Assembly: GCA_964016885.1 (NCBI GenBank) | Contig: OZ024742.1 | Coordinates: 364,870,001 to 364,934,000 of the forward strand | Reading direction: 5' to 3' | Source of the DNA: Eledone cirrhosa | Lineage: Eukaryota | Length of the DNA stretch: 64,000 nt | Shown: piece by piece, positions 26,342-62,530 of the stretch | Position numbering within the stretch: the stretch's first letter is position 1 | Layout: every line of letters begins with the position of its first letter | The notes under the pieces: generated by a model | What the model was told of the DNA's origin: nothing | The model's database searches: none | Seen by the model: the letters and a program-made list of their open reading frames with translations, nothing else | Program-made: the position numbers and the translations under genes

Positions 26342-27413
26342 TGGTTCATGGTGAAAGGCTAAGGGTCGTTGGCAGTTTTGTATATCTTGGAAGCACTCTG
26401 AGTATGTCCAGCGATCTTGATAGGTAAATATCAAACAGGATACAGAAAGCCAGTGATGCTTTTAGAAAACTGAACAAGCGTCTCTGGTCTCAACACTGAA
26501 TTTCGGTAAAGACAAAGCTGAAAGTGTATCATGCGTGTGTGCTCGCGGCACTTCTTTATACTTGTGAGACGTGTGTGGTATACCGTAAACAGATGAAGCA
26601 ACTTGAGAGCACTCACCAGTACAGCTTACGTCGGATCCTCGGCATAACTTGGCAAATGTTTGTCAGTGACGTCGAGTTTCTGGACAGAAGTGGCTCTGAT
26701 AGTATCGAGTCCTTGATTTTGAAACATCAGCTGCGCTGGACAGGCCATCTTGTAAGGATGAATGACAAGCGAATACCGAAGCAGCTGCTTTATGGCGAGC
26801 TCCCAATTGGAAAAAGGAACGCGAGCAAACCCAAGATGCGTTTTAAGGACTGCATCAAGGGGGCGCTCAAGAAATTTAACATCCCTTGTGAGCACTGGGA
26901 AGCATGCGCTAGCGAGCGATCACATTGGAGGAAAGCAGTGGCTAGGGGAAAGTGTCTATTTGAGGAAACAAGAAGAAGGCACGCGACACTAAAAAGAGAT
27001 GTCCGGAAAGGAATCCATGTTGGCCTTCTCGAAGGCAGGGACAGATGGCCTGTCCTGACATGTGAGACCTGTAATAGGGTTTGTTTGAGCATGGCAGGCC
27101 TAAAGAGTCACCTGAGAGTGCACAAGAACAGGGAAGCAGGCACCTGTGGAGCTATAAGTGTTCATCAGACGACGACATGTAAGGTTTGTGGAAGGGTATG
27201 CAGGTCCAGTAGTGATCTCACACGACACCTTGGGTCACATGGTGCCATGGGCCCAGCACTACGTGTTAATAATTGTCACAAGTGTAGTGTTTGTACCAGA
27301 GTTTTCAAGTCGCTGGCTGGACTAAAAAGTCACACTCGTTCAGCGCATCGGTAGGGGTTCTCCTACATGGATATAAAGTAGTGGCCGTACTCGAAAACGA
27401 GTTGGCAGCCACC
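26340..27413 (+). mobile_element. 5'-truncated RTE-clade LINE (3' part of the ORF), flanked by (TA)n
   Basis: Translates to GSFVYLGSTLS...RIQKASDAF...TKLKVYHACVLAALLY..LRRILGITWQ..QLRWTGHLVRM..RIPKQLLYGEL..RFKDCIK, the typical post-RT region of RTE elements. Confidence 0.9.
26524..27354 (+). pseudogene. RTE ORF C-terminal fragment ending in three C2H2 zinc fingers
   Basis: CETC-x12-HLRVH, CKVC-x12-HLGSH, CSVC-x12-HTRSAH; stops and a frameshift upstream, no RT core. Confidence 0.85.
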
Positions 27414-28067: not shown

Positions 28068-29200
28068 ATGGCTAACCAGCAAAAATCCAAACAGAACTGG
28101 TCTGATAATGAAATCGACATTCTAATAAACACATGGCATTGCCTTACCCAAACAGAAGACATAGATGCTTCATGTCTGAACGACATTGCTAAACGTACAG
28201 TTCACCTTTTGAAAACCCGATCTGAACAACAGATTCAAAATAAATTAAAGCAAATCGAAGTTGCTTTTAAATTAATCAATAAACATTTGGATAAACTACG
28301 GTGTGTTTTTTCTTCGGATGCTGTCCAGCAGCAGCAACAACAACAACAGCAGCAACAACGGCAACAACAACAACAGCTACAACAACAACAGCAATAACAA
28401 CAACGACAACAACAACAACAGTGTGAACCACTCCTTGATTCATCAACAATGGCCGATCTACTAAATGAAACTATTGACATCCCAGTAGCCTCTGTCTCAC
28501 AGCAGGAAACGTCACTTCCTTTCTCTGCCCCAGCAGTCCAATCATCACCACTGCCAACATCTTCTCTGCCTACTACTACTACTACTACTACAACATCTTT
28601 GCCTACTGCTATCTCAAGGAATTTACCTTCTAATACCGTACAAGAACTCTCCCTCCCACAGCCCACAAAGGTCGTCAAATCCTACTCAAACCATCATCTA
28701 CACCTCTCACAAGACACACACACACATACACACCCACTTGAAACCCCATCATTTGCCGCTACTCTCTACGCTATAGAATATGTACGGATAGTGGCTGCAA
28801 ATTCATCCATTTACCTAGGACAAAACGGTCTATCCCCACAAACAGCCACCACCATAATACATACTCTAATTTAACACCAACACAACCACCAATAACTCAA
28901 ACAAGGAATCCACAAATCTGCCGCTTTTCCCTGCGAGACAGATTGTGTTTAAACCGGGATTGTCCCTTTACCCATCTCCCGGGGACCCGTCGGACAAATG
29001 AAAATTAAAATAAAAATAAAAATAAAAGCAAAAACAAAAACCATAACCTACATAAAAATAACCACTACCACAGTCACCAACAGTCTCCTAAACAGGAAAC
29101 TTCTTCCTCTTTTTTAGACATAATGAATCTGGCAAAAGAACTGGAAAAAAACATTCGAGCTATCACCCAGCACCACCCTCCACTATCACCCCACTGCACA
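28068..29200 (+). pseudogene. LINE ORF1 remnant: Myb/SANT(trihelix)-like N-terminus, polyQ, Ser/Thr/Pro linker, CCCH zinc finger
   Basis: NWSDNEIDILINTW...RSEQQIQNKLKQI; (CAA/CAG)n; CRFSLRDRLCLNRDCPFTH (C-x8-C-x4-C-x3-H) at 28919-28975; interrupted by stops. Confidence 0.65.
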
Positions 29201-29208
29201 AACTCCCA

Positions 29209-32200
29209 TTGCTGCCATTAACAAACAAACAAATTAACAACACACCAAAACAATTAAAACCATCCACTCTCACCTCAACATTTTTGCTTAACGCCCAAGG
29301 CATCAGCCCTTCCACCAATACTCAAAAATGGAAGATCAAATTCCTGGAGGACTGGGTTGATGTCCATCCAAACCACATCCCGTTCTTCGTCCTCACTGAA
29401 ACCTATCTCAGTAACCTCCACTTGGAAGCCGAGGTGAAAGTGAAAAATTTCAAAGCCATCCGTGCTGATCGCGCTGGCAGAAGAAAGGGTGGGACTGCCA
29501 TTTATGTCCATAATTCTTTCTCAACAGAGGCTATGAACATATTTACTAATGGATACTGCGAAGCAGTCACTGTATTCAATCAAACCAACAACCTAATAGT
29601 AGTTGGGCTCTATAGGCCACCCCAAACGCCTGTACTATGCTTCAAGGAATGCCTCAACAGCATAAAGTGTTTCATCCAAGAGTGTCACCCTGACAACATC
29701 TTAATGATGGGGGACTTCAACCTCCCGGGAGTTGACTGGTCCACAAACAGCCTGCCACCAGGTTCTTCTGCCTCAACCTCTGACAGGGAAGCAGTGGAAT
29801 CGCTTCTTGACTTCATGGATGATTTCTTCCTGTCCCAACTGGTGCTCGAACCAACGATTGCCACAAAAACGTCCTAAACTTAATTTTCAGCAATCACACT
29901 GACAATATCCACAATATTGCAGTGGAGAAAACTCTACTCTCTGATCATGACATGGTTCTCTGTGATCTGAGATTCCACCGTCCAATATACAAACCCAATG
30001 TCCTCTCTCCTATCCATCCGTTTGACGCTATGGATTTCCACAATGCAAACTGGGAAGCGATCAGTCATGATCTTGCACATGTCGACTGGTCCTTCACGCA
30101 CACTCATACACCCACTAACATCAAAAAGTCCTGGTAGACATTTGTGGACACTGTTACAAACATATGTGCAAAACACACCCCATTAACAACTATAAACAAA
30201 TCTAAGAGCAGAATCCCTAGAAATAGATAAAACGCTCATCAGGAAAATTAAGAGAACGAAGAAAAAAAAAAAAAAAATCAACAAGCTGAAATACTGTCAG
30301 CAGCAACACATCAACTTGACTGCCATTTCATCACTAGAGATTAAAAAACATAACCTCCAAAACAATATGATGTCTATCATCAACAATCAGAGAAGAGCTG
30401 AAGAGGCCTGGGCCATTGAGAAGATCAAACTCAATCCCAAAGTGTTCTTTTCCTTTGCAAAAAAACACAAAATCACTGACTCCACTGTTGGCCCTCTAAT
30501 TGATGAAAATGGCGCTCTTCAAGACAATGCTAAAACCATGGGTGAGATACTGCAGAAACAATACTGCTCTGTTTTCAGCAATCCTGATATGGCCGATCTG
30601 GGCTGTATCGGCGATGTTACTCCCCATTACACCTTATCGGACATAACGTTTGGCGCCCCTGATGTCTTAGCGGCAATAAAGGAAATCAAGCATAATTCAG
30701 CAGTAGGTCCCGATAGGTTCCCTGCTTATGTCTTGAAGGCGTGTCAACACCAACTTGCATCTCCTCTTGCCAATCTGTGGCGGAACTCACTGGATGCTGG
30801 ATATGTGCCAGAAAACCTTCTATCCCAGTCTGTTATCCCAGTTTTCAAAAAAGGAAACAAATCCCTTGCCGTGAATTACCGTCCAATCTCACTCACCTCT
30901 CATATCATTAAGGTATTTGAGAGAGTGGTGAGATCGCGAATGATTCACTTCCTTGAGAGTAACAATATGCTGAACTCCAACCAGCATGGATTCCGTAATG
31001 GAAGGGATTGCCTGACGCAGCTACTGCATCACTTTGATGACATTTTGAGAGCCTTGGGAGAGGGTTCCAACACTGATGTTATCTACCTTGATTTCAGCAA
31101 GGCCTTTGACAGGGTTGATCACAACATTCTACTGAGAAAGCTGTCCAATATTGGTGTCACTGGAAAGCTGCTGCAGTGGATCAAGAGCTTCCTGTCAAAC
31201 AGAACCCAACATGGTGTAGTCGAAGGAGTCAAATCCAGCCCAGCCAAAGTCAGTAGTGGGGTCCCACAAGGCACTGTGTTGGGTCCACTTCTCTTCATCA
31301 TCTATATTAATGACATCACTGACATCATCAAACACAGCAACATTAGAATTTTCGCTGATGATTCCAAGCTCCAAAAGGTCATCGATGGCGTGGATGACCG
31401 GATAAGCCTTCAGTCAGACCTACTGGCTGTTACCCAATGGGCGGAAAAGAACATGTTACTGAACGAAGACAAATTCGAACTGATCCACTTTGGAAGAGGA
31501 TGCTCTGAAACTCCCGTACTCCCTTCCCTCCGGTGAAACTCTCGTGGCATCTAACAACATCAGAGACTTGGGAGTAACCGTGGACAGCAACATAAGCTGG
31601 GCCACGCATATAAGAAGCAAAGTTGACATGGCCCGCAGAATGTGTTCCTGGATCCTCAGAACCTTCCAGTCGAGAGATTCCCACACCATTATCCTTCTCT
31701 TCTCTACTTTTGCCCGACCACACCTTGAATACTGTTGTCCACTGTGGTCTCCCCACACGAAACAACGTATCATGAAACTTGAAGCTCCCCAAAGGGCAAT
31801 CACGAAAAAGATGGATGGCATGTCAGACATTGACTACTGGGGTCGACTAGAAAAGCTCAAACTTTACTCACTCCAACGTCGCCGTAAGCGTTATATTATC
31901 TGCATGATGTGGAAAATGTTTCATCATCACTGCCCAAATGATGTTGGCATCACCTTCAAATTACACCCAAGGCTTGGGCCCGTGCTATCCGTCCCAAACA
32001 AAAATCTAAATCGCAACTCATAACAACAATACGGCACAATTAGTTCACCTCAATTGGCCCTGCTCTCTTCAACATCACACCAGGACACGTCAAAACAGAA
32101 ACTGACCACACAAAATTCAAGAAGTCTTTGGACAAATTCCTCCAAGTAATCCCGGACAAACCACCCACACCCGGATATGTCTCCGCAAACAGTAATTCTC

Positions 32201-33311: not shown

Positions 33312-33712
33312 CCCTATACACTAGGACAACTGGGTATATATATAGTAGGATAACAGGGTATATATACACTATGATACCGGTATATATACACTAGGATACA
33401 GGGTATATTTCCACTAGGATAACAGGGTATATATATACACACTAGGATAACCTGCTACATATGCACTAGGATAACTGGGTATATATATATACACCAGGAT
33501 AACTGGGTATATATGCAGTAGGATAACCGGGTATATGTACAGTAGGATAACCGGGTATATATACACTAGGATAACCGGGTATATATGCACTAGAATAACT
33601 GGGTATATATACACTAGGATAACAGAGTATATGTTATATACACTAGGATAACCGGGTATATATACACTAGGATAACTGGGTATATATGCACTAGGATAAC
33701 AAGGTATATATG
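33312..33712 (+). repeat. ~24-bp minisatellite (CACTAGGATAAC[C/T]GGGTATATATA)
   Basis: Roughly 16 degenerate tandem units. Confidence 0.9.
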
Positions 33713-33875
33713 CAATCATATACACAGGTAAATTTAGATTTTGATAAATTAATGATTTACATAAGTGAAACCCACTTGTTTTAATTTGACTATTGGTAAT
33801 GTGGAAGTGGTGGAACAGAATATTTTAATAACATATTTCTAAGAAAGAATTATTTAAACGTATTTCCTATATATA

Positions 33876-34444: not shown

Positions 34445-34523
<79 letters not shown>

Positions 34524-34562
34524 TTGTATGTATGTATATATATATACACATATATTGTATGT

Positions 34563-34612
<50 letters not shown>

Positions 34613-34648
34613 AAGAGTGAGAAATGAAATTTCGTTTCATTCTATTCC

Positions 34649-34687
<39 letters not shown>

Positions 34688-37598: not shown

Positions 37599-38587
37599 AA
37601 GAATAAAGTAAATAAAAAACAGAGGTAATTGAAATTGAATATATACATACACGCATCCATAAACGTACATACACAAGCATACGCGAAAACACTCGCGGTA
37701 GGTATGCAAATACAAGCGCGTACACAAAAAAAAAACACGCACGCACATACAGAACCCACGCAACGCCTGTACCCGCACACATACGAACGTATACACCAAA
37801 TACACATAAAAATATATATAAAAAATATATATATATATCTGTGTGTGCGTGTATACATAATTAAATAAACGTATATAAATATACACACATAAATACGTAT
37901 ATAACGCGCACACACATACCTATATGTAAATACACATATGTTCGCGGACCTACGTCAATCAAAACGCGAAGTACACATATACATACACCCTACATACGTA
38001 CGAACCCGCATAATCACACAGACGCAAAACTCACGTATACACAAAACCAAATGCACATGTACCAGTATATATATATAATATATACGCAATAACATATACA
38101 AGCAAATATACGTACGAGAAAGTATACGTACCTTCACAAAACATACAGGTAATATATACTTACCTATACAAAAGAGTAATGGTATAAACATAACATATAC
38201 TTAGCTAGCACATCAAGACGTAAAATATCCGTGTATAGTTCGTACTATCCGTTAGGGTATAATGTGGGGCTGTAATACAGGAAAGTTTTGTGCAATTTAT
38301 GTTTACAAGCCGAAATTGCCTCAAATTTTTTTTTTTAATGTGGTCTTTGGCGTAGAGTATTTTCAGGGCCTCGGCGGCGCAGAGGTCACATGGTCTTTTA
38401 TTTCCGTTATACGATCTAGCCTAAGCTAGGATCTCCCAGTGTAACTTATATTGCGTGTGGTTGTCTTTTAGACTCCAGATATAAGCTGAAAGTGACTTAC
38501 CTGTGACACTGACTACCTAGACAGCCATGACCTTAGCCGTTTCTGCCCCAGTAGACCCATAAGAGGTAGACCCCCACCATAACCTCA

Positions 38588-39990
38588 ATGGCAAAAAAGA
38601 CTCCCATGGGAAGGTGGATTGGGTGCACCAAAGCAGTACGGACCCCCCAAAACAATGATCAGGTAATAAAAATGGTGGCACATGCAATAGGGGCTAGTAT
38701 TAAAACTACCCTAAAGGTCCACATATTCAAATTAAACGAGAAGATCTACACCAAATATGAGGCAGCAGCCATTGGCGTCAGCATAGCTGGCGACGTTGCA
38801 AACCTTTTTATAGTGTGGTGGGAAAGGAGACTCAAAGATCTTGATGAGAGCTCCATAGACCTCATCGTGTACTCTCGTTACGTAGACGACATCACTATAG
38901 TAATAAGGACATCCCCACAAGAGAGTACTGACAAGTATGATTTAGGATGTAGCACAATGGAAAGCATCCAGCAGATAGCTAATTCCATACACCAGAGTAT
39001 AACTGTAACTATCGACTCCCCTTCCAAACACCCTAACAATAGACTACCTGTATTAGACACGGAACTCTGGATTAACACTATAGACGAGAGAGCCCAAATT
39101 CTCCACTCACACTACGCTAAAACAATGGCCTCCAAATATCTGATACTCACAAACTCAGCAGTGTCCAGTAGTGCTAAGTTTAATATTCTGATCGCAGACA
39201 TGGTACGAGTGATGAAGAACGTGTCCCGCATGTGCGACCCAACAGAAATGGAAAGACACATCCAACACTTCATCAACCGCATGCAGTTCTCTGGCTACAA
39301 CCAAAGAGACAGAATCAGAGTACACGAAGGAGCCACGGAGAAGTATAAGACCCTCATAGAACTGGACATGAAAGGAATTTTGCCATTATACATGAGCAAA
39401 TCATGGAATAGCTTAGATAGAACTAAACATAAGATAGGGAATGCCACATCATGGTACGACAACCAAAGATACCAGAGTGTCATGTTCCTGGACGCTACCC
39501 CTGGAGGGAAATTAGCTCACCAGAAAAGCCCTGAGAAAGACCCACTTAAAGATTAAGGTGGTAGAAAAGCCAGGAACCACCATAAAATCCCTGATTAGCA
39601 AAACATACTCTTTTAAGAAAACCCACTGTATTAATAGGATATGTGTTATATGTAAAGTAAACCCCCGGATAAACTGTAAAACTAGAAACATAGTCTATAG
39701 CATAAGATGTATAGACGGTACCTGCAGAAACATGACAACAACATACATAGGCGAGACAGCTCGTAGCATAGGTGAAAGGATAGACCATCAGTGGGGGGAA
39801 CTAAAATGACGAAAAAACGGTTCAGTACTATATGAACACACCAGACAACAACACGACGGTAACATAGACAACATAGAAATTAAAATAATATCTAAACATA
39901 GAAATGACCCAGCAGATAGGCAATGACAGAAGCAAGTGAAATAGAACTTAGAAGGCCAAAGCTAAACAGAAAAAATAAATGGAATAACAA
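38588..39990 (+). pseudogene. Penelope RT / GIY-YIG endonuclease, frameshifted
   Basis: ORFs 38588-39556 and 39558-39809, with read-through remnants after the stop. Confidence 0.9.
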
Positions 39991-40268
39991 AACCCAAACA
40001 AACAATACTGACCTAAGAGAAATATAAATAAATAAATAAATACATATATAAGCACAATAACAACAAATACATATAACACACACACTAGTAAACTAAGATA
40101 GAATACAATAACCAAAACAGAGTCACCCAAACACGAACACACATCAAACACTATACACACACGCAAACGCATGCGCAGAGAAGAAGACACAAATAAATAA
40201 ATAAATAAACAGATTAAATAAAGATGGCGTAGACATACAAATATAACAGGAGGAAACATAATAGCACC

Positions 40269-40303
40269 ACTGACGAGTTGCAGATGTGCAACGAAAGAAC
40301 TTT
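40269..40303 (+). ncRNA. Minimal HHR core in the Penelope 3' region; stem I disrupted
   Basis: CTGACGA-GTTGCA-gatg-TGCAAC-GAAA-GAAC-TT; homologous to the 56625-56667 motif. Confidence 0.7.
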
Positions 40304-40489
40304 CTTAGACTATATATATGTTTGTGTCTATATTATATCTGTATTTTTAGTCAGTCAATGATAAACATTGAGGAGCGAATAAATTAACTGATATAAAAGA
40401 TACGGAAGCGAAAACCAACCAAACAATGAGTGTGTTCTGTTATTAATCCTGGCAATATTATTACAACAATATGACCCTCCCCAAGTATC

Positions 40490-40534
<45 letters not shown>

Positions 40535-42251: not shown

Positions 42252-42533
42252 TAATATATACACTGGTCATTGAAGCCTGTTAGGTATTTTAACCACGTGT
42301 TTAAGAACTCAATTGGATATTAAAAAAATAAATATATGTATGTACCATCGATACATACATATAGGTATTTTCTCAGGCAAATCCTGTATCTCATGCATGA
42401 TATTTTGCCTGAGAAAATACCTATATGTATGTATAGATGGTACATACATATATTTATTTTTTTAATATCCAATTGAGTTCTTAAACACGTGGTTAAAATA
42501 CCTAACAGGCTTCAACGACCAGCGTATATATTA
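42252..42533. repeat. ~280-bp near-perfect palindrome (130-bp arms, ~22-nt loop)
   Basis: 42252-42381 is the reverse complement of 42404-42533, with a few mismatches. Confidence 0.92.
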
Positions 42534-42559
42534 AAGCTTTCTCTGTTAATGTATTAAAT

Positions 42560-42675
42560 ATAAGTTGAAAAAAATGAAAACGAAATTTCATTTCTCACTC
42601 TTAGTATGGCACTTACTTAAACGTAAGTATGTATGTATACGTACATACATATGTGTATAAAAACGTACAGTAGCA

Positions 42676-42773
<98 letters not shown>

Positions 42774-43207
42774 TACATACAGGTACACATACATATATGC
42801 ACGCATCAGTTTAGCGGACGCTTATTATAACGCCGCTTTGTTCGTTTGTAAACAAACTGAACAGCCTGAATTTATGCCATACGGTGTTAAGGCAACCACG
42901 TCACCTTTTTGTTCAACACTGACACAGGAACGATGTACTAGTTTCAAGCTTGTTAGCTATCATCAGCACCGTATACCCATCTGCCAGATAGTTGAACGTT
43001 CGAAAGTATATACTTTCGTTATGAAAATTAACGGCTGAGCAGCCTAATTTGTATATTGAGTGAGTTAAATCGGTCAGGCATACCGAAAACGATAAGTTGA
43101 AAAAAATGAAAACGAAAGTTCATTTCTCACTCTTAGTATGGCACTTACTTAAATGTAAGTATGTATGTATACGTACATACATATATGTATACAGACGTAC
43201 AGTAGCA

Positions 43208-43277
<70 letters not shown>

Positions 43278-43318
43278 TACATACAGGTACACATACATAT
43301 ATGCACGCATCAGTTTAG
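42560..43318 (-). mobile_element. Retrozyme-like repeat, subfamily B (~1.4 units; internal TA expanded)
   Basis: Reverse complement of 61885-62468; homologous to the 422-bp unit; direct repeat at 42560 and 43093. Confidence 0.85.
42930..42972 (-). ncRNA. Minimal type I hammerhead ribozyme (subfamily B)
   Basis: Minus strand: ACGGTG-CTGATGA-T-AGCT-aaca-AGCT-T-GAAA-CTAG-TA-CATCGT. Confidence 0.85.
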
Positions 43319-43461
43319 TGGTAGTGGTAGGACACGGGAAGGTAATATCCGTAGTGGTAGAGCACTCAGTCCATGGAACGAGTTAGGTAGAAGTGGTAAC
43401 ACAACACTTAATTCACCATACCGAGAACAATTCTTTCACTTTAATGGATCTTCAAGATTCG

Positions 43462-44962: not shown

Positions 44963-45016
44963 CTTTACTTGCCCTGATGAGTCCTTAATAGGACGAAACA
45001 TTGTTGGCTAATAAAG
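44963..45016 (+). ncRNA. Canonical minimal type I hammerhead ribozyme
   Basis: CTTTA-ctt-GCC-CTGATGA-GTCC-ttaata-GGAC-GAAAC-att-GTT-GGC-taa-TAAAG (stem I with an internal loop, GUU site). Confidence 0.92.
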
Positions 45017-46336: not shown

Positions 46337-49057
46337 ATTTTGATATCTTTGATAGGTTTTGGCCAGTATTGGCCCAGGACATGTCTAACTTAATAGCACA
46401 ACCTGGCGAAGTCTTACAAATCAGTGTTTGGGCACCATGGCCCACTCGAGCAGAGAGTTATTGTTTACGGAGGTATATCCGGGTGTAGGAGGCTTATCCG
46501 GGTTTCTTGAAGGAATTTATCCAAAGACCTCTTGAACTTGATGGGGTCTGTTTCTGTTTTAATGTGTTTTGGTGTAATGTTAAAGAGTGCAGGGCCAATT
46601 GGGGTGATATAATTGTGCCGTATTGTTTTTATGTGATGCGAGTGGGATTTTTGTCGTGGGCGGATAACACGGGGCCCAACCTTGGGTGTACACTAAAGGT
46701 GATGCGTACATCATTTGGGCTAAGCTGATGGAATATTTTCCACATCATACAGATAATGTAGTGCTCACGGCGACGTTGAAGAGAATAAAGTTTGAGCTTT
46801 TCTAAACGACCCCAATAGTCAAGGCCTGTCATGCCAACTATCTTTTTTTTAATTGACCTTTGGGGTGCTTCAACTTTCATGATACTTTGTTTCGTGTGGG
46901 GGGACCACAGTGGACAACAGTATTCAAAGTGGGGTCGTACAAAAGTGGAGAAGTGAAGGGGCAACAGTGTGGATATCTCTCGACTGGAAAGTTCTGGGAA
47001 TCCAGGAACACATTCTGCGGGCCATATCAACTTTGCTGTTTATATGAGTGGCCCAGCTTATGTTGTTGTCCACAATTACTCCCAGGTCTCTGATGTTATT
47101 GGAAGCCACTAGAGTTTCACCCGAAGGAAGAGAGTATGGTAGTTTCAAGGCATCCTTTTTTCCAAATTGGATTAGTTCAAATTTATCCTCATTCAACAGC
47201 ATATTATTCATCTCTGCCCATTGGATAACAGCCAGTAGGTCTGACTGAAGGCAAGTCCGGTCACCCACCTCATTGATGACCCTTTGGAGCTTGGAATCAT
47301 CTGCGAAGATTCTGATGTCACTGTGTTTGATGGTGTCAGTAATGTCATTAATGTAAATGATGAAAAGAAGTAGGCCCAACACAGTGCCTTGTGGGACGCC
47401 ACTGCGGACTTTGGCAGGGCTTGATTTTACTCCTTCGACTACAACATGCTGGGTTCTGCCTGTCAGGAAACATTTGATCCACTGTAGTAACCTTCCAGAG
47501 ACAACATTGGATAGTTTTTTCAGTAGAATCTTATGAACAACCCTGTCGAAGGCCTTGCTGAAATCAAGGTAGATGACATCAGTGTTGGAGCCCTCTCCCA
47601 AGGCTCTCAAAACATCGTCAATGTGATGCAGGAGCTGCGTTAGGCAGTCCCTTCCATTACGGAACCCATGTTGGTTGGAGTTCAGCAGGCCGTTGCTTTC
47701 AAGAAAGTGGGTTATTCGTGATCTCACCACCCTCTCAAATACCTTGATAATATGAGATGTGAGTGAGATGGGACGGTAGTTCACTGCAAGGGACTTATAT
47801 CCCTTTTTGAAGACTGGGACAACGGACTGGGACAAAAGTTTTCAGGAATATAGCCACTGTCCAGTGAGTTCCTCCACAGATTAGCAAGAGGTGTTGCAAG
47901 TTGGTGTCGACACACCTTCAGGACACAAGCAGGGAACCTGTCGGGGCCTACTGCTGAATTTTGTTTAATTTCTTTTATTGCCGCTAAGACATCAGGGGCG
48001 CCAAACGTTATGTCTGATATAGTGTGTTGGGGGTTAACATCACTGATACAGCCCAGATCGTCCATATCAGGATTGTTGAAACCAGAGCAGTATTGTTTCT
48101 GCAGTATCTCTCCCATGGTTTTGGCATTGTCTTGGAATGTGCCATTTTCATCAACTAGGGGCCAACAGTGGAGACGGTGACCTTGTGTTTTTTAGCGAAT
48201 GAGAAGAACACTTTGGGGTTGAGTTTGATTTTCTCAATGGCCCACCTCTCTTCAGCTATTCTCTGGTTATTGATGATGGTCATCATGCATTACTGGAGGT
48301 TATTTTTTTTTTACTCAAGCAGGGTGATAGCCATTGAACGCGTGTGTTTCTGTTGGCAGTATTTTAGTGTGTTAATTTTTTTGTTTGTTCTTTTTTATTT
48401 TTCTGATAATTGTTTTTCTGTTTTGGGAGATACTGCACTTGATTTTTTTCACAAGTTTTGGTGGGGTGCGTTTTGTACATATATTTGTGACAGTGTCTAC
48501 AAAGATCTGCCAAGATGTTTTGATGTTGGTAGTAGTGTGTGCGTGTGTAAAAGACCAGTCGACATGTGATAGTTCGTTCATAATTGCATTCCAGTTGGCA
48601 TTGTAGAGATCCATGTTATCAAATGAGTGGGCTGGAGAGAGGACCCTGGGATTAGCTTTCGGCTGGTGGAATCTCAGGTTACAAAGAACCATGTCATGGT
48701 CTGAGAGAAGGGTTTTTTCCACTGTAATATTATGTATAGTATTAGTGTGGTTACTAAACACTAGATCCAGAATGTTCTTCTGATGCCTCGTTGGTACAAG
48801 GATAAGTTGGGACAAGATAAACTCATTCATGAAGTCAAGAAGTGACTCGACAGCCTCTTTGTCAGTGGTTGACGCTGTCGAGCCTGGTTTCAAACTACAT
48901 GTAGACCAATAGACACAGGGTAGATTAAAGTCTCCCATCAAAAGTATGTTGCTAGAATGGCACTGTTTAATAAAGCATTTAATACTGTTGAGGCATTCTT
49001 TGAAACAGATTATGGGTGTTTGTAGCGGCCTATAGAGCCCAACTAATGTCAGGTCAT
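46337..49057 (-). mobile_element. 5'-truncated CR1-group LINE, same family as 27960-32319 in opposite orientation
   Basis: Minus-strand ORFs with YRP, GDFNLP, SDHD, YLDFSKAFD, GVPQGTVLG, FADDSK, RPHFEYCCPLWSP; homologous 3'UTR (..GCTATTAAGTTAGACATG.CCTGGGCCAATACTGGCCAAAAC). Confidence 0.93.
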
Positions 49058-49202
49058 TGGCATGTCTCTTTTCTACGCTTCCTCTTACATCTCTCTCTCA
49101 CTAGCACCTGATTCTGTTAGCTGGAGATTTACCCATCTGCATTGTTGAGGCTTCCAAAACGATCATTTTTATTATCCCACAATGCTCCAAGCAAACTTCA
49201 AC

Positions 49203-49246
<44 letters not shown>

Positions 49247-49249
<3 letters not shown>

Positions 49250-52200
49250 GTTCGGTGAATCCATACGTGCATATATATATGTGTGCATGTATGTATATAT
49301 ATATATACATACTACTGTACGTCGGTATACATATATGTATGTACGTGTACATACTTATATTTAAGTAACAGCCGTACTAAGAGTGGGAAATGAAATATCA
49401 TTTCATTTTTTCCGTTTATCGTTTTCGGTGCACCCGGCCGATTAACCCACTCGATATGCAAATTGGGCTACTCAGCCGTTAATATGCATAAGGTAAGTAT
49501 ATACGTTCAACAATCTGGCAGGAAGGTATACGTTGCTGACGATAGCTAACAAGCTTGAAACTAGTACAGCGTTCCTTTGTCAGTGTTGAACAAACGAGCA
49601 ACGGTGGTTGCTAGACACTACGGCTTAATACGGGATGTTTGTTTACAAACACACCGAGCATTATAATAAATGTTCGGTGAATCCATACGTGCATATATAT
49701 ATGTGTGCATGTATGTATATATATATATACATACTACTGTACGTCGGTATACATATATGTATGTACGTGTACATACTTATATTTAAGTAACAGCCGTACT
49801 AAGAGTGGGAAATGAAATATCGTTTCATTTTTTCCGTTTATCGTTTTCGGTGCACCCGGCCGATTAACCCACTCGATATGCAAATTGGGCTACTCAGCCG
49901 TTAATATGCATAAGGTAAGTATATACGTTCAACAATCTGGCAGGAAGGTATACGTTGCTGACGATAGCTAACAAGCTTGAAACTAGTACAGCGTTCCTTT
50001 GTCAGTGTTGAACAAACGAGCAACGGTGGTTGCTAGACACTACGGCTTAATACGGGATGTTTGTTTACAAACACACCGAGCATTATAATAAATGTTCGGT
50101 GAATCCATACGTGCATATATATATGTGTGCATGTATGTATATATATATATACATACTACTGTACGTCGGTATACATATATGTATGTACGTGTACATACTT
50201 ATATTTAAGTAACAGCCGTACTAAGAGTGGGAAATGAAATATCGTTTCATTTTTTCCGTTTATCGTTTTCGGTGCACCCGGCCGATTAACCCACTCGATA
50301 TGCAAATTGGGCTACTCAGCCGTTAATATGCATAAGGTAAGTATATACGTTCAACAATCTGGCAGGAAGGTATACGTTGCTGACGATAGCTAACAAGCTT
50401 GAAACTAGTACAGCGTTCCTTTGTCAGTGTTGAACAAACGAGCAACGGTGGTTGCTAGACACTACGGCTTAATACGGGATGTTTGTTTACAAACACACCG
50501 AGCATTATAATAAATGTTCGGTGAATCCATACGTGCATATATATATGTGTGCATGTATGTATATATATATATACATACTACTGTACGTCGGTATACATAT
50601 ATGTATGTACGTGTACATACTTATATTTAAGTAACAGCCGTACTAAGAGTGGGAAATGAAATATCGTTTCATTTTTTCCGTTTATCGTTTTCGGTGCACC
50701 CGGCCGATTAACCCACTCGATATGCAAATTGGGCTACTCAGCCGTTAATATGCATAAGGTAAGTATATACGTTCAACAATCTGGCAGGAAGGTATACGTT
50801 GCTGACGATAGCTAACAAGCTTGAAACTAGTACAGCGTTCCTTTGTCAGTGTTGAACAAACGAGCAACGGTGGTTGCTAGACACTACGGCTTAATACGGG
50901 ATGTTTGTTTACAAACACACCGAGCATTATAATAAATGTTCGGTGAATCCATACGTGCATATATATATATATGCGTGCATGTATGTATATATATATATAC
51001 ATACTACTGTACGTCGGTATACATATATGTATGTACGTGTACATACTTATATTTAAGTAACAGCCGTACTAAGAGTGGGAAATGAAATATCGTTTCATTT
51101 TTTCCGTTTATCGTTTTCGGTGCACCCGGCCGATTAACCCACTCGATATGCAAATTGGGCTACTCAGCCGTTAATATGCATAAGGTAAGTATATACGTTC
51201 AACAATCTGGCAGGAAGGTATACGTTGCTGACGATAGCTAACAAGCTTGAAACTAGTACAGCGTTCCTTTGTCAGTGTTGAACAAACGAGCAACGGTGGT
51301 TGCTAGACACTACGGCTTAATACGGGATGTTTGTTTACAAACACACCGAGCATTATAATAAATGTTCGGTGAATCGATACGTGCATATATATATGTGTGC
51401 ATGTATGTATATATATATATACATACTACTGTACGTCGGTATACATATATGTATGTACGTGTACATACTTATATTTAAGTAACAGCCGTACTAAGAGTGG
51501 GAAATGAAATATCGTTTCATTTTTTCCGTTTATCGTTTTCGGTGCACCCGGCCGATTAACCCACTCGATATGCAAATTGGGCTACTCAGCCGTTAATATG
51601 CATAAGGTAAGTATATACGTTCAACAATCTGGCAGGAAGGTATACGTTGCTGACGATAGCTAACAAGCTTGAAACTAGTACAGCGTTCCTTTGTCAGTGT
51701 TGAACAAACGAGCAACGGTGGTTGCTAGACACTACGGCTTAATACGGGATGTTTGTTTACAAACACACCGAGCATTATAATAAATGTTCGGTGAATCCAT
51801 ACGTGCATATATATATGTGTGCATGTATGTATATATATATATACATACTACTGTACGTCGGTATACATATATGTATGTACGTGTACATACTTATATTTAA
51901 GTAACAGCCGTACTAAGAGTGGGAAATGAAATATCGTTTCATTTTTTCCGTTTATCGTTTTCGGTGCACCCGGCCGATTAACCCACTCGATATGCAAATT
52001 GGGCTACTCAGCCGTTAATATGCATAAGGTAAGTATATACGTTCAACAATCTGGCAGGAAGGTATACGTTGCTGACGATAGCTAACAAGCTTGAAACTAG
52101 TACAGCGTTCCTTTGTCAGTGTTGAACAAACGAGCAACGGTGGTTGCTAGACACTACGGCTTAATACGGGATGTTTGTTTACAAACACACCGAGCATTAT

Positions 52201-52793
52201 AATAAATGTTCGGTGAATCGATACGTGCATATATATATGTGTGCATGTATGTATATATATATATACATACTACTGTACGTCGGTATACATATATGTATGT
52301 ACGTGTACATACTTATATTTAAGTAACAGCCGTACTAAGAGTGGGAAATGAAATATCGTTTCATTTTTTCCGTTTATCGTTTTCGGTGCACCCGGCCGAT
52401 TAACCCACTCGATATGCAAATTGGGCTACTCAGCCGTTAATATGCATAAGGTAAGTATATACGTTCAACAATCTGGCAGGAAGGTATACGTTGCTGACGA
52501 TAGCTAACAAGCTTGAAACTAGTACAGCGTTCCTTTGTCAGTGTTGAACAAACGAGCAACGGTGGTTGCTAGACACTACGGCTTAATACGGGATGTTTGT
52601 TTACAAACACACCGAGCATTATAATAAATGTTCGGTGAATCCATACGTGCATATATATATGTGTGCATGTATGTATATATATATATACATACTACTGTAC
52701 GTCGGTATACATATATGTATGTACGTGTACATACTTATATTTAAGTAACAGCCGTACTAAGAGTGGGAAATGAAATATCGTTTCATTTTTTCC

Positions 52794-52797
<4 letters not shown>
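49247..52797 (+). mobile_element. Tandem array of 422-bp HHR-containing units (retrozyme-like satellite), 8.4 copies
   Basis: Marker TGTTCGG at 49249, 49671, 50093, 50515, 50937, 51363, 51785, 52207, 52629; units nearly identical; flanked by (TA)n. Confidence 0.95.
49530..49572 (+). ncRNA. Minimal type I hammerhead ribozyme; repeated at 49952, 50374, 50796, 51222, 51644, 52066, 52488
   Basis: ACGTTG-CTGACGA-T-AGCT-aaca-AGCT-T-GAAA-CTAG-TA-CAGCGT; palindromic stem III (ACTAGT); GUA cleavage predicted after 49566. Confidence 0.88.
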
Positions 52798-52827
<30 letters not shown>

Positions 52828-55493: not shown

Positions 55494-55530
<37 letters not shown>

Positions 55531-55745
55531 TTTCTGAATTTGTTTAGCAAGATTCTTTATCTGAAAACGTGTGCTGAAACCGATATTGTTATACTTTGGG
55601 GGGGGGGGGGTCATGTTGCCAATAAGAAACACACGCACCAGTCGTTTCACTTCAATTTATTATAATAAATTTATAAATTTAGGAATTTATAAATTTCCGG
55701 TTGGTTGGTTGGTTCCACAACCAGATGGTTGTTTATATATTGCCA

Positions 55746-56430
55746 GAACCAAATGGGAAAAAATGGTAAATAATGACACAAATGGGACCTGCCCCTTGTA
55801 TAGGAGCAAATTTTGGAATAGAATAGAAAGAACTAGGAATAAGGCTAATAGAATAAACTCATGGTATGATAGCAATAAATACCAGAGTGTAATGTTCATC
55901 GATACAACCCCTAGAGGTGAATTAGCTTACAAATTTAGAAGGGCCCTAGATAAACATAAACTCAATATTAAGAAAGTAGAAAGACCAGGTACCTCCATAA
56001 AAACACTTATTAGCGAGACATACCCTTTTCAAGGACCTCCCTATATAGATAAGAAATGTATAATCTGTAAAATATGCCCCCATATTAACTGTAAAACAAG
56101 AAATGTAGTATATAGCATAAGATGTACTGAAGGACAATGTAGAGATACAAATATAGTGTACATAGGTGAGACAGCTCGTAGTATAGGGGAACGGATAAAT
56201 GAACACTGGCGAGAGCTTCAAGATAGTAAAGAATCATCTGTACTCTACCAACATGCTAAAATAGGACATACGGGTAAATTAGAGAACATAGAAATAAAAA
56301 TAGAATCTACACACAGAAAAGACGCAATGTTTAGACAAATCACAGAGGCAATAAACATAAATGAATTATAAGCAAAATTAAATAGAAAGCATGAGTGGAA
56401 CAGCAACATCACAACTTACAATTAAGGACA
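55746..56430 (+). pseudogene. Penelope linker + GIY-YIG endonuclease fragment
   Basis: YQSVMFIDTTPRGELA..CIICK..NCKTRNVVYSIRC..YIGETARSIGERINEH..RQITEA; the first ~57 aa of ORF 55571 derive from the inverted repeat. Confidence 0.9.
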
Positions 56431-56624
56431 AAATGAAAACAGACACGCACATACAACAAACAACCAACCAGTAACATGTAAATAAACAAATAAATAAACG
56501 AATAAAAAACACACAGACACCCGGATGTAACACATGCGCAAACTAAGCACAACACACACACAAAAACAAGATGGCGTAGGGCAGAACAAAGGAGAGGCAC
56601 AAAAAGCAAAGAAAAGAATCCCCA

Positions 56625-56667
56625 GTCACTGAAGAGGTCACAGAATGTGTGACGAAAGAACTTTGAC
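56625..56667 (+). ncRNA. Minimal type I hammerhead ribozyme in the Penelope pLTR
   Basis: GTCA-CTGAAGA-G-GTCACA-gaatg-TGTGAC-GAAA-G-aa-C-TT-TGAC; cleavage predicted after 56663. Confidence 0.82.
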
Positions 56668-56813
56668 AATATATAAACAACCATCTGGTTGTGGAACCAA
56701 CGAACCAACCGGAAATTTATAAATTCCTAAATTTATAAATTTATTATAATAAATTGAAGTGAAAGCAGCTGGTGCGTGTGTTTCTTATTGGCAACATGAC
56801 CCTCCCAAAGTAT

Positions 56814-56898
<85 letters not shown>

Positions 56899-59351: not shown

Positions 59352-59355
59352 CATA

Positions 59356-59387
<32 letters not shown>

Positions 59388-59394
59388 CATACAA

Positions 59395-61120
59395 TTGTAC
59401 GTCTATATACATATATGTATGTACGTATACATACTTATATTTAAGTAACAGCCGTACTAAGAGTGGGAAATGAAATTTCGTTTCATTTTTTTCCGTTTAT
59501 CGTTTTCGGTGCACCCGGCTGATTAACCCACTCGATATGCAAATTGGGCAACTCAGCCGTTAATATGCATAAGGTAAGTATATACGTTCAACAATCTGGC
59601 AGGAAGGTGTACGTTGCTGACGATAGCTAATAAGCTTGAAACTAGTACAGCGTTCCTTTGTCAGTGTTGAACAAACGAGCAACGATGGTTGCTAGACACT
59701 ACGGCTTAATGCGGGATGTTTGTTTACAAACACACCGAGCATTATAATAAATGTTCGGTGAATCCATACGTACATATATATATGTGTGCATGTATGTATA
59801 TATATATACATACTACTGTCCGTCTGTATACATATATGTATTTACGTTTACATACATATATGTAAGTAACAGCCGTACTAAGAATGGGAAATGAAATTTC
59901 GTTTCATTTTTTCCGTTTATCGTTTTCGGTGCACCCGGCCGATTAAACCACTCGATATGTAAATTGGGCTACTCAGCCGTTAATATGCATAAGGTAAGTA
60001 TATATGTTCAACAATCTGGCAGGAAGGTATACGTTGCTGACGATAGCTAATAAGCTTGAAACTAGTACAGCGTTCATTTGTCAGTGTTGAACAAACGAGC
60101 AACGATGGTAGCTAGACACTAAGGCTTAATGCGGGATGTTTGTTTACAAACACACCAAGCATTATAATAAATGTTCGGTGAATCCATACGTACATATATA
60201 AATGTGTGCATGTATGTATATATATACACACTACTGTACGACTGTATACATATATGTATGTACGTATACATACTTATATTTAAGTAACAGCCGCACTAAG
60301 AGTGGGAAATGAAATTTCGTTTCATTTTTTTCCGTTTATCGTTTTCGGTGCACCCGGCTGATTAACCCACTCGATATGCAAATTGGGCAACTCAGCCGTT
60401 AATATGCATAAGGTAAGTATATACGTTCAACAATCTGGCAGGAAGGTGTACGTTGCTGACGATAGCTAATAAGCTTGAAACTAGTACAGCGTTCCTTTGT
60501 CAGTGTTGAACAAACGAGCAACGGTGGTTGCTAGACACTACGGCTTAATACGGGATGTTTGTTTACAAACACACCGAGCATTATAATAAATGTTCGGTGA
60601 ATCCATACGTGCATATATATATGTGTGCATGTATGTATATGTATATATACATACTACTGTACGTCGGTATACATATATGTATGTACGTGTACATACTTAT
60701 ATTTAAGTAACAGCCGTACTAAGAGTGGGAAATGAAATATCGTTTCATTTTTTCCGTTTATCGTTTTCGGTGCACCCGGCCGATTAACCCACTCGATATG
60801 CAAATTGGGCTACTCAGCCGTTAATATGCATAAGGTAAGTATATACGTTCAACAATCTGGCAGGAAGGTATACGTTGCTGACGATAGCTAACAAGCTTGA
60901 AACTAGTACAGCGTTCCTTTGTCAGTGTTGAACAAACGAGCAACGATGGTTGCTAGACACTACGGCTTAATGCGGGATGTTTGTATACAAACACACCGAC
61001 CATTATAATAAATGTTCTGTGAATCCATACGTACATATATGTGTGTGCATGTATGTATATATATATGCATACTACTGTACGTTTGTATACATATATGTAT
61101 GTACGTGTACATACTTATAT
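59395..61120 (+). mobile_element. Second, more diverged array of the 422-bp HHR unit (~4.1 copies)
   Basis: HHRs start at 59611, 60031, 60450, 60872 (spacing 420/419/422); cores intact; loop II AACA/AATA variation. Confidence 0.95.
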
Positions 61121-61164
61121 ATATATATAAATATATAATATATATAAATATATATATATATATA

Positions 61165-61470
61165 TATGATATTAAATAAATGGAAACTATATTTATAAAA
61201 CCATATTTATTTCGTTATATATATTTCAGGGATATCATATTAACAATATGTTATGCCATCTTCAGACAAAATACAATATAAACAGTCTTATAAATAAATA
61301 GATACGACATACCTTTCAATCACCTTGCATTTGTGAGGTTGATATAAGACTGTTTATATTGTATTTTGTCTGAAGATGGCATAACATATTGTTAATATGA
61401 TATCCCTGAAATATATATAACGAAATAAATATGGTTTTATAAATATAGTTTCCATTTATTTAATATCATA
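61165..61470. mobile_element. Foldback cassette (128-bp arms, 50-nt spacer) with an HHR on each arm
   Basis: 61165-61292 is the reverse complement of 61343-61470. At 61362-61427: TATTTTGT-CTGAAGA-T-GG..CATATT-gtt-AATATG..CC-T-GAAA-TATATA-TA-ACGAAATA. Confidence 0.85.
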
Positions 61471-61884: not shown

Positions 61885-61888
<4 letters not shown>

Positions 61889-62468
61889 TGCCACTGTACG
61901 TCTGTATACATATATGTATGTACGTATACATGCATACTTACATTTAAGTAAGTGCCATACTAAGAGTGAGAAATGAAATTTCGTTTTCATTTTGTTTCAA
62001 TTTAACGTTTTCGGTATGCCTGACCGATTTAACTCACTCAATATGCAAATTAGGCTGCTCAGCCGTTAATTTTCATAAGGAAAGTATATACTTTCGAACG
62101 TTCAACTATCTGGCAGATGGGTAAACGGTGCTGATGATAGCTAAAAAGCTTGAAACTAGTACATCGTTCCTGTGTCAGTGTTGAACAAAAAGGTGACGTG
62201 GTTGCCTTAACACCGTATGGCATAAATTCAGGCTGTTCAGTTTGTTTACAAACGAACAAAGCGACGTTATAACAAGCGCCGCTAAACTGATACGTGCATA
62301 TATGTATGTGTACCTGTATGCATATGTATATATATATGTATATATATATATGTGCATGCTACTGTACGTCTGTATACATATATGTATGTACGTATACATG
62401 CATACTTACATTTAAGTAAGTGCCATACTAAGAGTGAGAAATGAAATTTCGTTTTCATTTTGTTTCAA
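61885..62468 (+). mobile_element. Retrozyme-like repeat, subfamily B (~1.4 units)
   Basis: Homologous to the 422-bp unit and near-identical to the reverse complement of 42560-43318; flanked by (TA)n. Confidence 0.88.
62124..62168 (+). ncRNA. Minimal type I hammerhead ribozyme (subfamily B)
   Basis: AACGGTG-CTGATGA-T-AGCT-aaaa-AGCT-T-GAAA-CTAG-TA-CATCGTT. Confidence 0.88.
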
Positions 62469-62530
62469 TATATATATATATATATATATATATAGTGGTT
62501 TGTGTGTGTGTGTATATATATATATTGGAT

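Follow-up and report, generated by a model that had tools for sequence, protein, structure and literature searches.

Putative non-LTR retrozymes with apparently selected RNA folds and Penelope-like insertion ends in the genome of Eledone cirrhosa

Introduction

The closest described systems are the non-LTR retrozymes of animals, which are built of protein-free tandem units with one type I hammerhead each and a GC content below 50%, occur in thousands of copies and several families per genome, and have a strongly self-paired predicted circle and, in axolotl HHR_Amex2, a U·U at the base of helix II (main text of PMC7229834; Cervera & de la Peña 2020). The same text sets out the retrozyme cycle and reports expression, cleavage and circles, the last found in coral, mussel and axolotl. 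The repeats of Eledone cirrhosa analyzed here resemble them in these sequence traits, whereas their units are longer (422–540 bp with a variable TA tract, compared to a quoted 150–450 bp) and are known from sequence alone. Retrozymes have been proposed as non-autonomous users of Penelope enzymes both in PMC7229834 and in a study of Xenopus (main text of bioRxiv 10.64898/2026.07.22.740005; Li, Clavereau & Pollet 2026). Xenopus retrozymes, like ours, co-occur with Penelope elements and are found as monomers, dimers and multimers; their link to Penelope is drawn from co-occurrence and terminal-repeat similarity, whereas the link drawn here comes from an insertion signature. The main text of the Xenopus study makes no mention of tails, covariation or compensation, and that of PMC7229834 makes no mention of fixed tailed and untailed ends or head-to-head arms.

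Penelope-like elements show 5′ truncation, partial tandems, an adjacent inverted copy, a tail that is often on one end only and microsatellite targets in the available text of PMC8557442 (Craig et al. 2021), and the insertions described below resemble those of Neptune-type Penelope elements in these marks (PMC8557442, PMC11167929). An anole Penelope element has two internal reverse transcriptase (RT) start sites 3′ of a hammerhead, a layout like that proposed here, and both strands were extended in vitro (available text of PMC11167929; Frangieh et al. 2024). Unlike Penelope-like elements, the retrozyme has no ORF; its tail measures ~55 nt (~70 in family E) compared to the 30–40 bp quoted for Penelope-like elements in these texts, and its hammerhead is canonical with tertiary loops, whereas the local Penelope repeat has a variant hammerhead. 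Compensatory changes in genomic hammerhead families have already been noted (available text of PMC4209133; Cervera & de la Peña 2014).

Results

Retrozyme-like units in the window

The window is a 64,000-nt stretch of contig OZ024742.1 (positions 364,870,001 to 364,934,000 of the forward strand; assembly GCA_964016885.1). Two arrays in it consist of a 422-bp unit, termed subfamily A. The array at 49247–52799 (+) has 8.4 units, 8 hammerheads and a tailed 3′ end in (TA)n, and its eight full units are identical outside the TA tract; the array at 59352–61123 (+) has 4.2 units, 4 hammerheads and an untailed 3′ end, and its units are mosaic at lineage-variable sites. The diverged copies that the initial annotation had assigned to a subfamily B are present where it placed them, at ~61885–62469 (+) and ~42560–43321 (−), with 76–79% identity to the A unit. 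The former (the 62-kb copy) comprises a 5′-truncated partial unit (to 62005) and one full 464-bp unit (62006–62469), with a single hammerhead and a tailed 3′ end against (TA)n. The latter (the 42.8-kb copy) has ~1.6 units, a single hammerhead and a tailed 3′ end at 42560. Their CUGAUGA motifs lie at 62131 (+) and 42966 (−), respectively. A short 5′-truncated tail fragment of the same A/B family (79% to A) occurs at 34513–34654 (+). The division into two discrete subfamilies did not hold, as A and B are the ends of a graded lineage series with intermediates.

Head-to-tail tandem units a few hundred bp long with a type I hammerhead in each were found in the window arrays and in many genomic arrays. 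The units are non-coding, the only frames of at least 100 aa over them being TA-tract read-throughs, and GC is ~38% over the array. The plant LTR retrozyme, with type III hammerheads in LTRs around a unique core, was ruled out by the type I topology and the tandem units. By these sequence properties, the units would qualify as an animal non-LTR retrozyme.

The remainder of the window is rich in other repeats. A satellite of 20-bp units with a strong G/C strand skew fills positions 1–22761 (~1,139 copies, 84% matches), and a 24-bp minisatellite of ~16 copies lies at 33315–33733. Two broken LINE copies at 29092–32023 (+) and ~46600–49100 (−) contain endonuclease and RT domains (Pfam Exo_endo_phos and RVT_1), and a 284-aa open frame at 26500–27354 (+) resembles a LINE C-terminus followed by C2H2 zinc fingers. 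An inverted repeat with ~130-bp arms (61197–61470) lies between TA tracts and adjoins an A array; similar fold-back inserts occur near 42260–42560 and at a locus outside the window (L148).

Anatomy of the hammerhead

Every A and B unit carries one type I hammerhead, in which CUGANGA follows a stem I of 5 bp and leads to a stem II of 4 bp based on U·U; GAAAC-UA-GUA comes next, and then stem I returns with its second arm. The core elements CUGANGA, GAAA and NUH sit on three helices, open at stem I. In the 62-kb copy the hammerhead spans 62126–62166 (+), as read from the sequence and from a weak Rfam HH9 match, with stem I at 62126–62130/62162–62166, CUGAUGA at 62131–62137, the U·U at 62138/62151, stem II as AGCU-AAAA-AGCU, GAAAC-UA-GUA at 62152–62161 and a predicted cut after 62161, which is unit position 156 in B and corresponds to 147 in A. 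It is surrounded by an extended stem I rod with an internal loop UAAA/UU (62100–62186, +; fold z −3.51). Over the 64-kb window Rfam gave no match at the gathering score and 63 matches at E up to 10, mostly miRNA models in TA tracts and one weak hammerhead match, Hammerhead_HH9 on 62117–62179 (20.4 bits, E 0.024, cut-off 52). The hammerhead call therefore stands on the core motifs and on covariation.

The differences between A and B partly agree with those claimed. The N7 position is C in A and U in B, and stem I changes from CGUUG/CAGCG in A to CGGUG/CAUCG in B, as the initial annotation had stated. Its list of the only changes (N7, loop II and a swapped stem I pair) was incomplete: the stem I internal loop is UAAA instead of UAUA in the 62-kb copy, the next stem I segment changes from AAGG/CCUU to UGGG/CCUG, and 5 of 42 distal stem positions differ. 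Loop II does not mark the subfamilies, the sequence AACA being common to both. In contigs from four sequencing runs of unknown type, N7 and loop II were the only core sites with listed variants; the non-TA part was covered in one run by a single contig of 470 letters, and such contigs cannot show circles.

We compared 26 natural hammerheads, chosen by hand to span lineages. The loop 1/loop 2 letters, namely the loop II AA and the internal-loop U letters, are unchanged in 26/26. The conserved G10.1-C11.1 pair, usual in canonical metazoan hammerheads (available text of PMC4209133), is absent in most, the position being unpaired in 22 of the 26 sequences (U·U in A, B, C and most F; A·A in G), and only family E keeps G-C. 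The same U·U is found in the axolotl HHR_Amex2, which cleaves (main text of PMC7229834); the pair is typical of type I hammerheads, not defining. Helix III is palindromic throughout (C-UA-G, C-AU-G and C-GC-G), and the family-level haplotypes have A, C or U at position 17. The self-duplex energies of helix III are −6.4 to −9.5 kcal/mol, and it forms no hairpin alone. A short helix III with a palindromic loop in metazoan hammerheads has been read as a sign of dimer cleavage (PMC4209133, available text), and the modeled helix III of our units would fit that mode. At a single locus (L182, ~1001–1316, −), an E unit has apparently lost the hammerhead interior, so that the internal loop is joined to the cut-site region.

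Copy number and families

A 31-nt core has 24,749 exact matches in the 3.0-Gb genome by pattern search, and a 20-nt motif near the 3′ end has 34,432; neither had a match in the reversed control. The excess of 3′ anchors over cores is consistent with 5′ truncation. Further families were found with patterns that left out the main stem II, kept the core fixed and did not demand stem I or stem II pairing. Family E has a 470-bp unit and 1,834 first-look candidates; family G is older, mostly 88–92% identical to the query, with 5,983 first-look candidates that possibly include other families; and family F has a 310-bp unit. Outside the ribozyme, homology to A/B extends to E and G, while at E 0.01 family F shows similarity to none of A, B, E and G, and its agreement with the other families may thus be convergence. 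Four looser pattern matches (L249–L252) and the locus L148 had no stem I pairing and were taken as chance.

Long B arrays with variable TA tracts occur at C4:212911961–212949976 (~80 units) and C3:12275000–12284999 (>20 units), and family F units break up the former (L142). Penelope repeats and retrozymes of different families are often neighbors within the same TA tracts (L149, L175, L229, L231 and L301), which suggests a shared choice of target.

Selection on the RNA fold

The initial annotation had argued for selection on RNA structure from the swapped stem I pair (62128/62164 in the 62-kb copy), which is U-G in A and G-U in B. On a tree of 101 insertions, the pair is A-U near the midpoint root (6 insertions), G-U in B and intermediates (53), U·U in a few intermediates (4) and U-G in A (36), with two others, giving a path A-U → G-U → U·U → U-G. 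The swap is thus one two-step event through a tolerated mismatch and weak evidence alone. We rejected it as evidence of covariation by itself, the mismatch state having reached at least 210 exact copies; this genome-wide count of the U·U haplotype has no matching count for the alternative mismatch as a control.

Wider data support the claim that the swap could not carry. Between A and B in the window, 0 of 29 constrained core positions differ compared to 45 of 174 flank positions (Fisher p = 5e-4), a comparison that the initial annotation had suggested, and 12 of 83 differ in the 5′ flank alone (p = 0.034). In the 26 hammerheads, pairing holds in 90.6% of 416 cells (16 pairs), compared to 74.0 ± 1.4% in shuffles and 35–46% in slid controls. 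Both sides have changed at 11 of the 16 pairs across four families; this count of 11 was also reached in 179 of 500 shuffles, and relatedness among the 26 sequences inflates the other pairing measures. Stems I and II present four different solutions around an invariant core.

Compensation extends to helices outside the ribozyme. A long-range closing helix, with its 5′ arm GUAUGGCA at 62215–62222 (+) and its 3′ arm UGCCAUAC at 62421–62428 (+), has arms ~170–200 nt apart and is compensated stepwise across lineages, from GUACGGCU/AGCCGUAC through GUACGGCG/UGCCGUAC and GUACGGCA/UGCCGUAC to GUAUGGCA/UGCCAUAC, and again in family E (GUAUGACU/AGUCAUAC). A tail-closing helix changes from G-C to A-U in a lineage-specific manner (GAGUGGG/CCCACUC versus GAGUGAG/CUCACUC). 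We also placed paired-site changes on a tree of 55 insertions whose units are complete, and the ratio of pairs kept to pairs broken is 25:13 at the lineage level and 36:82 among private changes (p = 2e-4). Because the helices come from A or B folds, the ratio is somewhat biased toward pair-keeping; the 13 pair-breaking lineage changes lie mostly where helices slip register. The initial annotation had also proposed folding the circularised monomer, and 7/7 monomers are predicted to be strongly self-paired (z −4.3 to −9.9 with 40 shuffles each, values that TA tracts inflate).

The second hairpin varies in strength among the copies. Both versions quoted in the initial annotation exist and fold, that of the A array with z −5.76 and that of the 42.8-kb copy (42813–42837, within the minus-strand copy) with z −2.46; the 62-kb copy has a weaker third version with an A·C mismatch (62260–62283, +; z −1.64). 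A young B sublineage (L002, L007 and the B-like loci of the window) has lost 6–7 nt of the apex, yet it spread, so the apex is dispensable.

The evidence from the constrained core positions is more equivocal. On the 101-insertion tree, lineage changes number 1 in 29 constrained columns (one ascertained column excluded) compared to 104 in 202 flank columns. Private changes, which are confined to a single insertion, also fall below expectation in the core (17 versus 38.9 expected, and 19 versus 30.2), likewise in the two long arrays (9 versus 21.7 and 14 versus 22.1) and in family G (20 versus 36.7), which makes the lineage-versus-private contrast weak for the core. Accordingly, core lineage changes did not differ from those on terminal branches in a McDonald-Kreitman-type test (p = 0.59), in which terminal changes are also core-depleted and some of the sampled insertions had been selected by their core; against within-insertion changes (p = 0.038) and against the 5′ flank only (p = 0.22), the contrast is weak. 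The depletion of private changes is likely explained by unsampled small lineages that had already passed selection and to which many of these changes would belong. Broken cores do occur among inserted copies. Owing to the depletion of private core changes, selection at the copying stage is not cleanly separable from other causes.

Paired changes could in principle arise in DNA with no selection on RNA, through quasi-palindrome template-switch repair and gene conversion in a TA-rich satellite. The unit is rich in local inverted repeats, long arrays exist (~80 units at C4:212910000), homogenisation of this kind could act on local hairpins, the second one among them, and private core changes are low too. 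Such repair would, however, give Watson-Crick pairs without strand bias, whereas G-U outnumbers A-C on the plus strand by 16 to 6. The compensated closing helix spans ~170–200 nt, the unpaired catalytic core is the most conserved part, and the dispersed, 5′-truncated copies with fixed 3′ ends point to reverse transcription. We regard this origin as very improbable. Selection seems to cover the whole monomer fold beyond the ribozyme, and, judging from these substitution patterns, propagation would depend on the folded RNA.

Insertion ends and the link to Penelope

Insertions stop at two fixed unit positions ~55 nt apart, nearly always against (TA)n, while their 5′ ends scatter. The fixed 3′ ends lie at unit positions 366 and 422 in A, 409 and 463 in B, and ~396–401 and 470 in E. 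The stretch between them is the tail (62415–62469, + in the 62-kb copy), and the two ends may mark the start sites of reverse transcription; in the 62-kb copy the tail holds one hairpin and one arm of a compensated helix (GAGUGAG, 62432–62438). The sampled loci comprise listed places in the first 22 Mb of contig C1, B-like similarity matches and two long arrays.

Many insertions lie head-to-head, and these combine the two kinds of end. We found 56, and both outer ends could be classified in 39, the other 17 having an end cut off or in neither class. Among the 39, 38 have one tailed and one untailed end, one has both tailed and none has both untailed (binomial p = 7e-11); a local duplicate accounts for two of the 38. 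Family E behaves likewise, its classifiable head-to-head pairs being tailed plus untailed in 15 of 15 cases among 19 loci, three of which are on small contigs and may repeat others. 5′ truncation, an inverted adjacent copy, a tail on one end and a microsatellite target are all present, as in Penelope-like elements. Target-site duplications, expected to exceed 4 bp in animal retrozymes that have them, would be hidden by the (TA)n adjoining the ends. The pairing of arms may reflect two internal start sites and two-strand extension as in the anole element, an analogy that it fits. No description of tailed and untailed inverted arms was found for retrozymes in the literature searched or in the main texts of the retrozyme papers, on which the supplements may bear.

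Penelope-like elements are found beside the retrozymes. A truncated copy at 38570–40493 (+) retains RT, a GIY-YIG region and a terminal repeat with its own hammerhead-like core at 40270, and its untailed end lies in (TA)n. A second truncated copy of a related subfamily (55529–56817, +) has an inverted tailed 5′ arm (55529–55745), an untailed 3′ end and a hammerhead-like core at 56629. A separate hammerhead-like motif at 44969–45010 (+; CUGAUGA-GUCC/GGAC-GAAAC-AUU-GUU), ~150 nt 5′ of a TA tract, appears to be a solitary terminal repeat from a further Penelope-type family.

The two window fragments belong to a local Penelope family with 20,948 first-look candidates and open frames above 1000 aa. 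Tandem units of 4,132 bp at L298:4387–8518 (C7:28550500 onward) contain a 1204-aa open frame, which includes an asparagine-rich stretch. Pfam recognised neither the Penelope ORF nor the window fragments, so the assignment rests on motifs in the ORF (RT motifs, a C-x4-C-xx-C linker and a GIY-YIG motif) and on its Atlas neighbours with RT/GIY-YIG/HTH_animal. The RT motifs, cysteine linker and GIY-YIG point to a putative Neptune type. Among 29 ends of this family, 14 are untailed, 14 have tails of 42–62 nt and one runs into the ORF, and all five two-ended loci (5/5) have one tailed and one untailed end. The retrozyme units have no sequence similarity to this one Penelope family (best E 0.006, in TA tracts), which is therefore a candidate partner only.

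The units could instead be terminal repeats shed by an autonomous Penelope-like element not yet found, in which selection acted while the units hitch-hike. A Penelope repeat has the same order, with the hammerhead before the tail; among 57 Xenopus retrozyme families, 24 match transposable elements, nearly all of them Penelope terminal repeats (main text of bioRxiv 2026.07.22.740005); and the comparison above covered one Penelope family. Against this origin, the 246 tail-anchor occurrences at the sampled loci run into the next unit or stop, nearly always in (TA)n or AT-rich DNA, and lineage-specific compensations link the tail to the start of the next unit, where the ORF of an autonomous element would lie. 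We consider shed repeats the least probable of the explanations weighed here.

The template

The insertions bear on the form of the RNA that was copied. At least one hammerhead is passed through in 117 of 169 arms. We looked for an excess of 5′ ends at the cut site and found none, 2 of 175 lying within 4 nt of it; an apparent cluster at unit position 1 is artificial, since alignments break in the TA tract. A cut linear monomer was thus not what was copied, and the template was either circular or an uncut multimer. In some young insertions the units are identical and both arms share a period peculiar to that insertion (491 bp at C28:69777333), which favors a circle, as do the catalytic letters kept in all families and the compact circular folds predicted for all seven monomers. 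Units within an insertion are closer to each other than to the nearest other insertion in 11 of 37 cases (5 ties), and together with the mosaic array at 59–61 kb this result makes a single circular template insufficient by itself and favors multimers or later conversion.

We think a circle quite probable as the template, by analogy with known retrozymes; this confidence derives largely from the circles shown in coral, mussel and axolotl (PMC7229834, main text). The competing view is that Penelope copies an uncut multimeric transcript, the fold being kept for protein binding, RNA stability or excision from read-through RNA and not for circles. The mosaic array and the 11 of 37 cases favor it, arms that pass through hammerheads fit uncut RNA as well as a circle, and unprocessed RNA is the main in vitro substrate of the anole element (available text of PMC11167929). 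Four families with different stems nonetheless retain all catalytic letters, a position 17 that can be cleaved and the palindrome of helix III; with an uncut multimer as template, cleavage would be destructive and units with dead cores would be expected to spread, and retrozyme circles have been shown in three animals. Copying from uncut RNA is in our judgment unlikely. Two reports weigh against the self-cutting model: hammerhead mutants of the anole element showed no loss of insertion in vitro (available text of PMC11167929), and cleavage was absent in 8 of 9 dimers of Xenopus retrozymes (main text of bioRxiv 2026.07.22.740005).

Discussion

The units are likely a non-LTR retrozyme, whose sequence suggests transcripts that cut themselves, form circles and are copied into (TA)n by a Penelope-like RT. 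In the proposed cycle, arrays would be transcribed on the plus strand, and the hammerheads would cut, probably as dimers through the palindromic helix III. A host ligase would close the monomer into a circle. The Penelope protein may then nick both strands of a TA tract and start one cDNA at each of the two sites, and a cDNA going round the circle would yield arms of more than one unit. Only variants that keep the fold would found new lineages, while inserted copies would decay. Since a monomer requires two cut sites, the two B copies in the window, with one hammerhead each, have probably reached a dead end.

We advance a broader reading tentatively and with some doubt. At least four retrozyme families with tens of thousands of copies may parasitise a Neptune-type Penelope with which they share no sequence. 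The RT would read RNA shape, in the form of the compensated tail domain, and prime a cDNA from either of two fixed sites, both on a single circular RNA, leaving tailed and untailed arms in nearly every inverted insertion.

The retrozyme papers, in their main texts, argue for Penelope from co-occurrence and similarity, whereas the insertion ends described here tie the retrozyme to the Penelope mechanism directly. A further new element is the map of helices under apparent selection across the monomer. Intact-looking Penelope ORFs and ~25,000 substrate copies in one genome make two questions testable, namely what the Penelope RT recognises and whether spread depends on hammerhead cleavage and circles. 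If the broader reading is true, the genome of Eledone cirrhosa would amount to a natural mutational scan, informative both on the features that Penelope enzymes read and on the reasons for which hammerheads persist.
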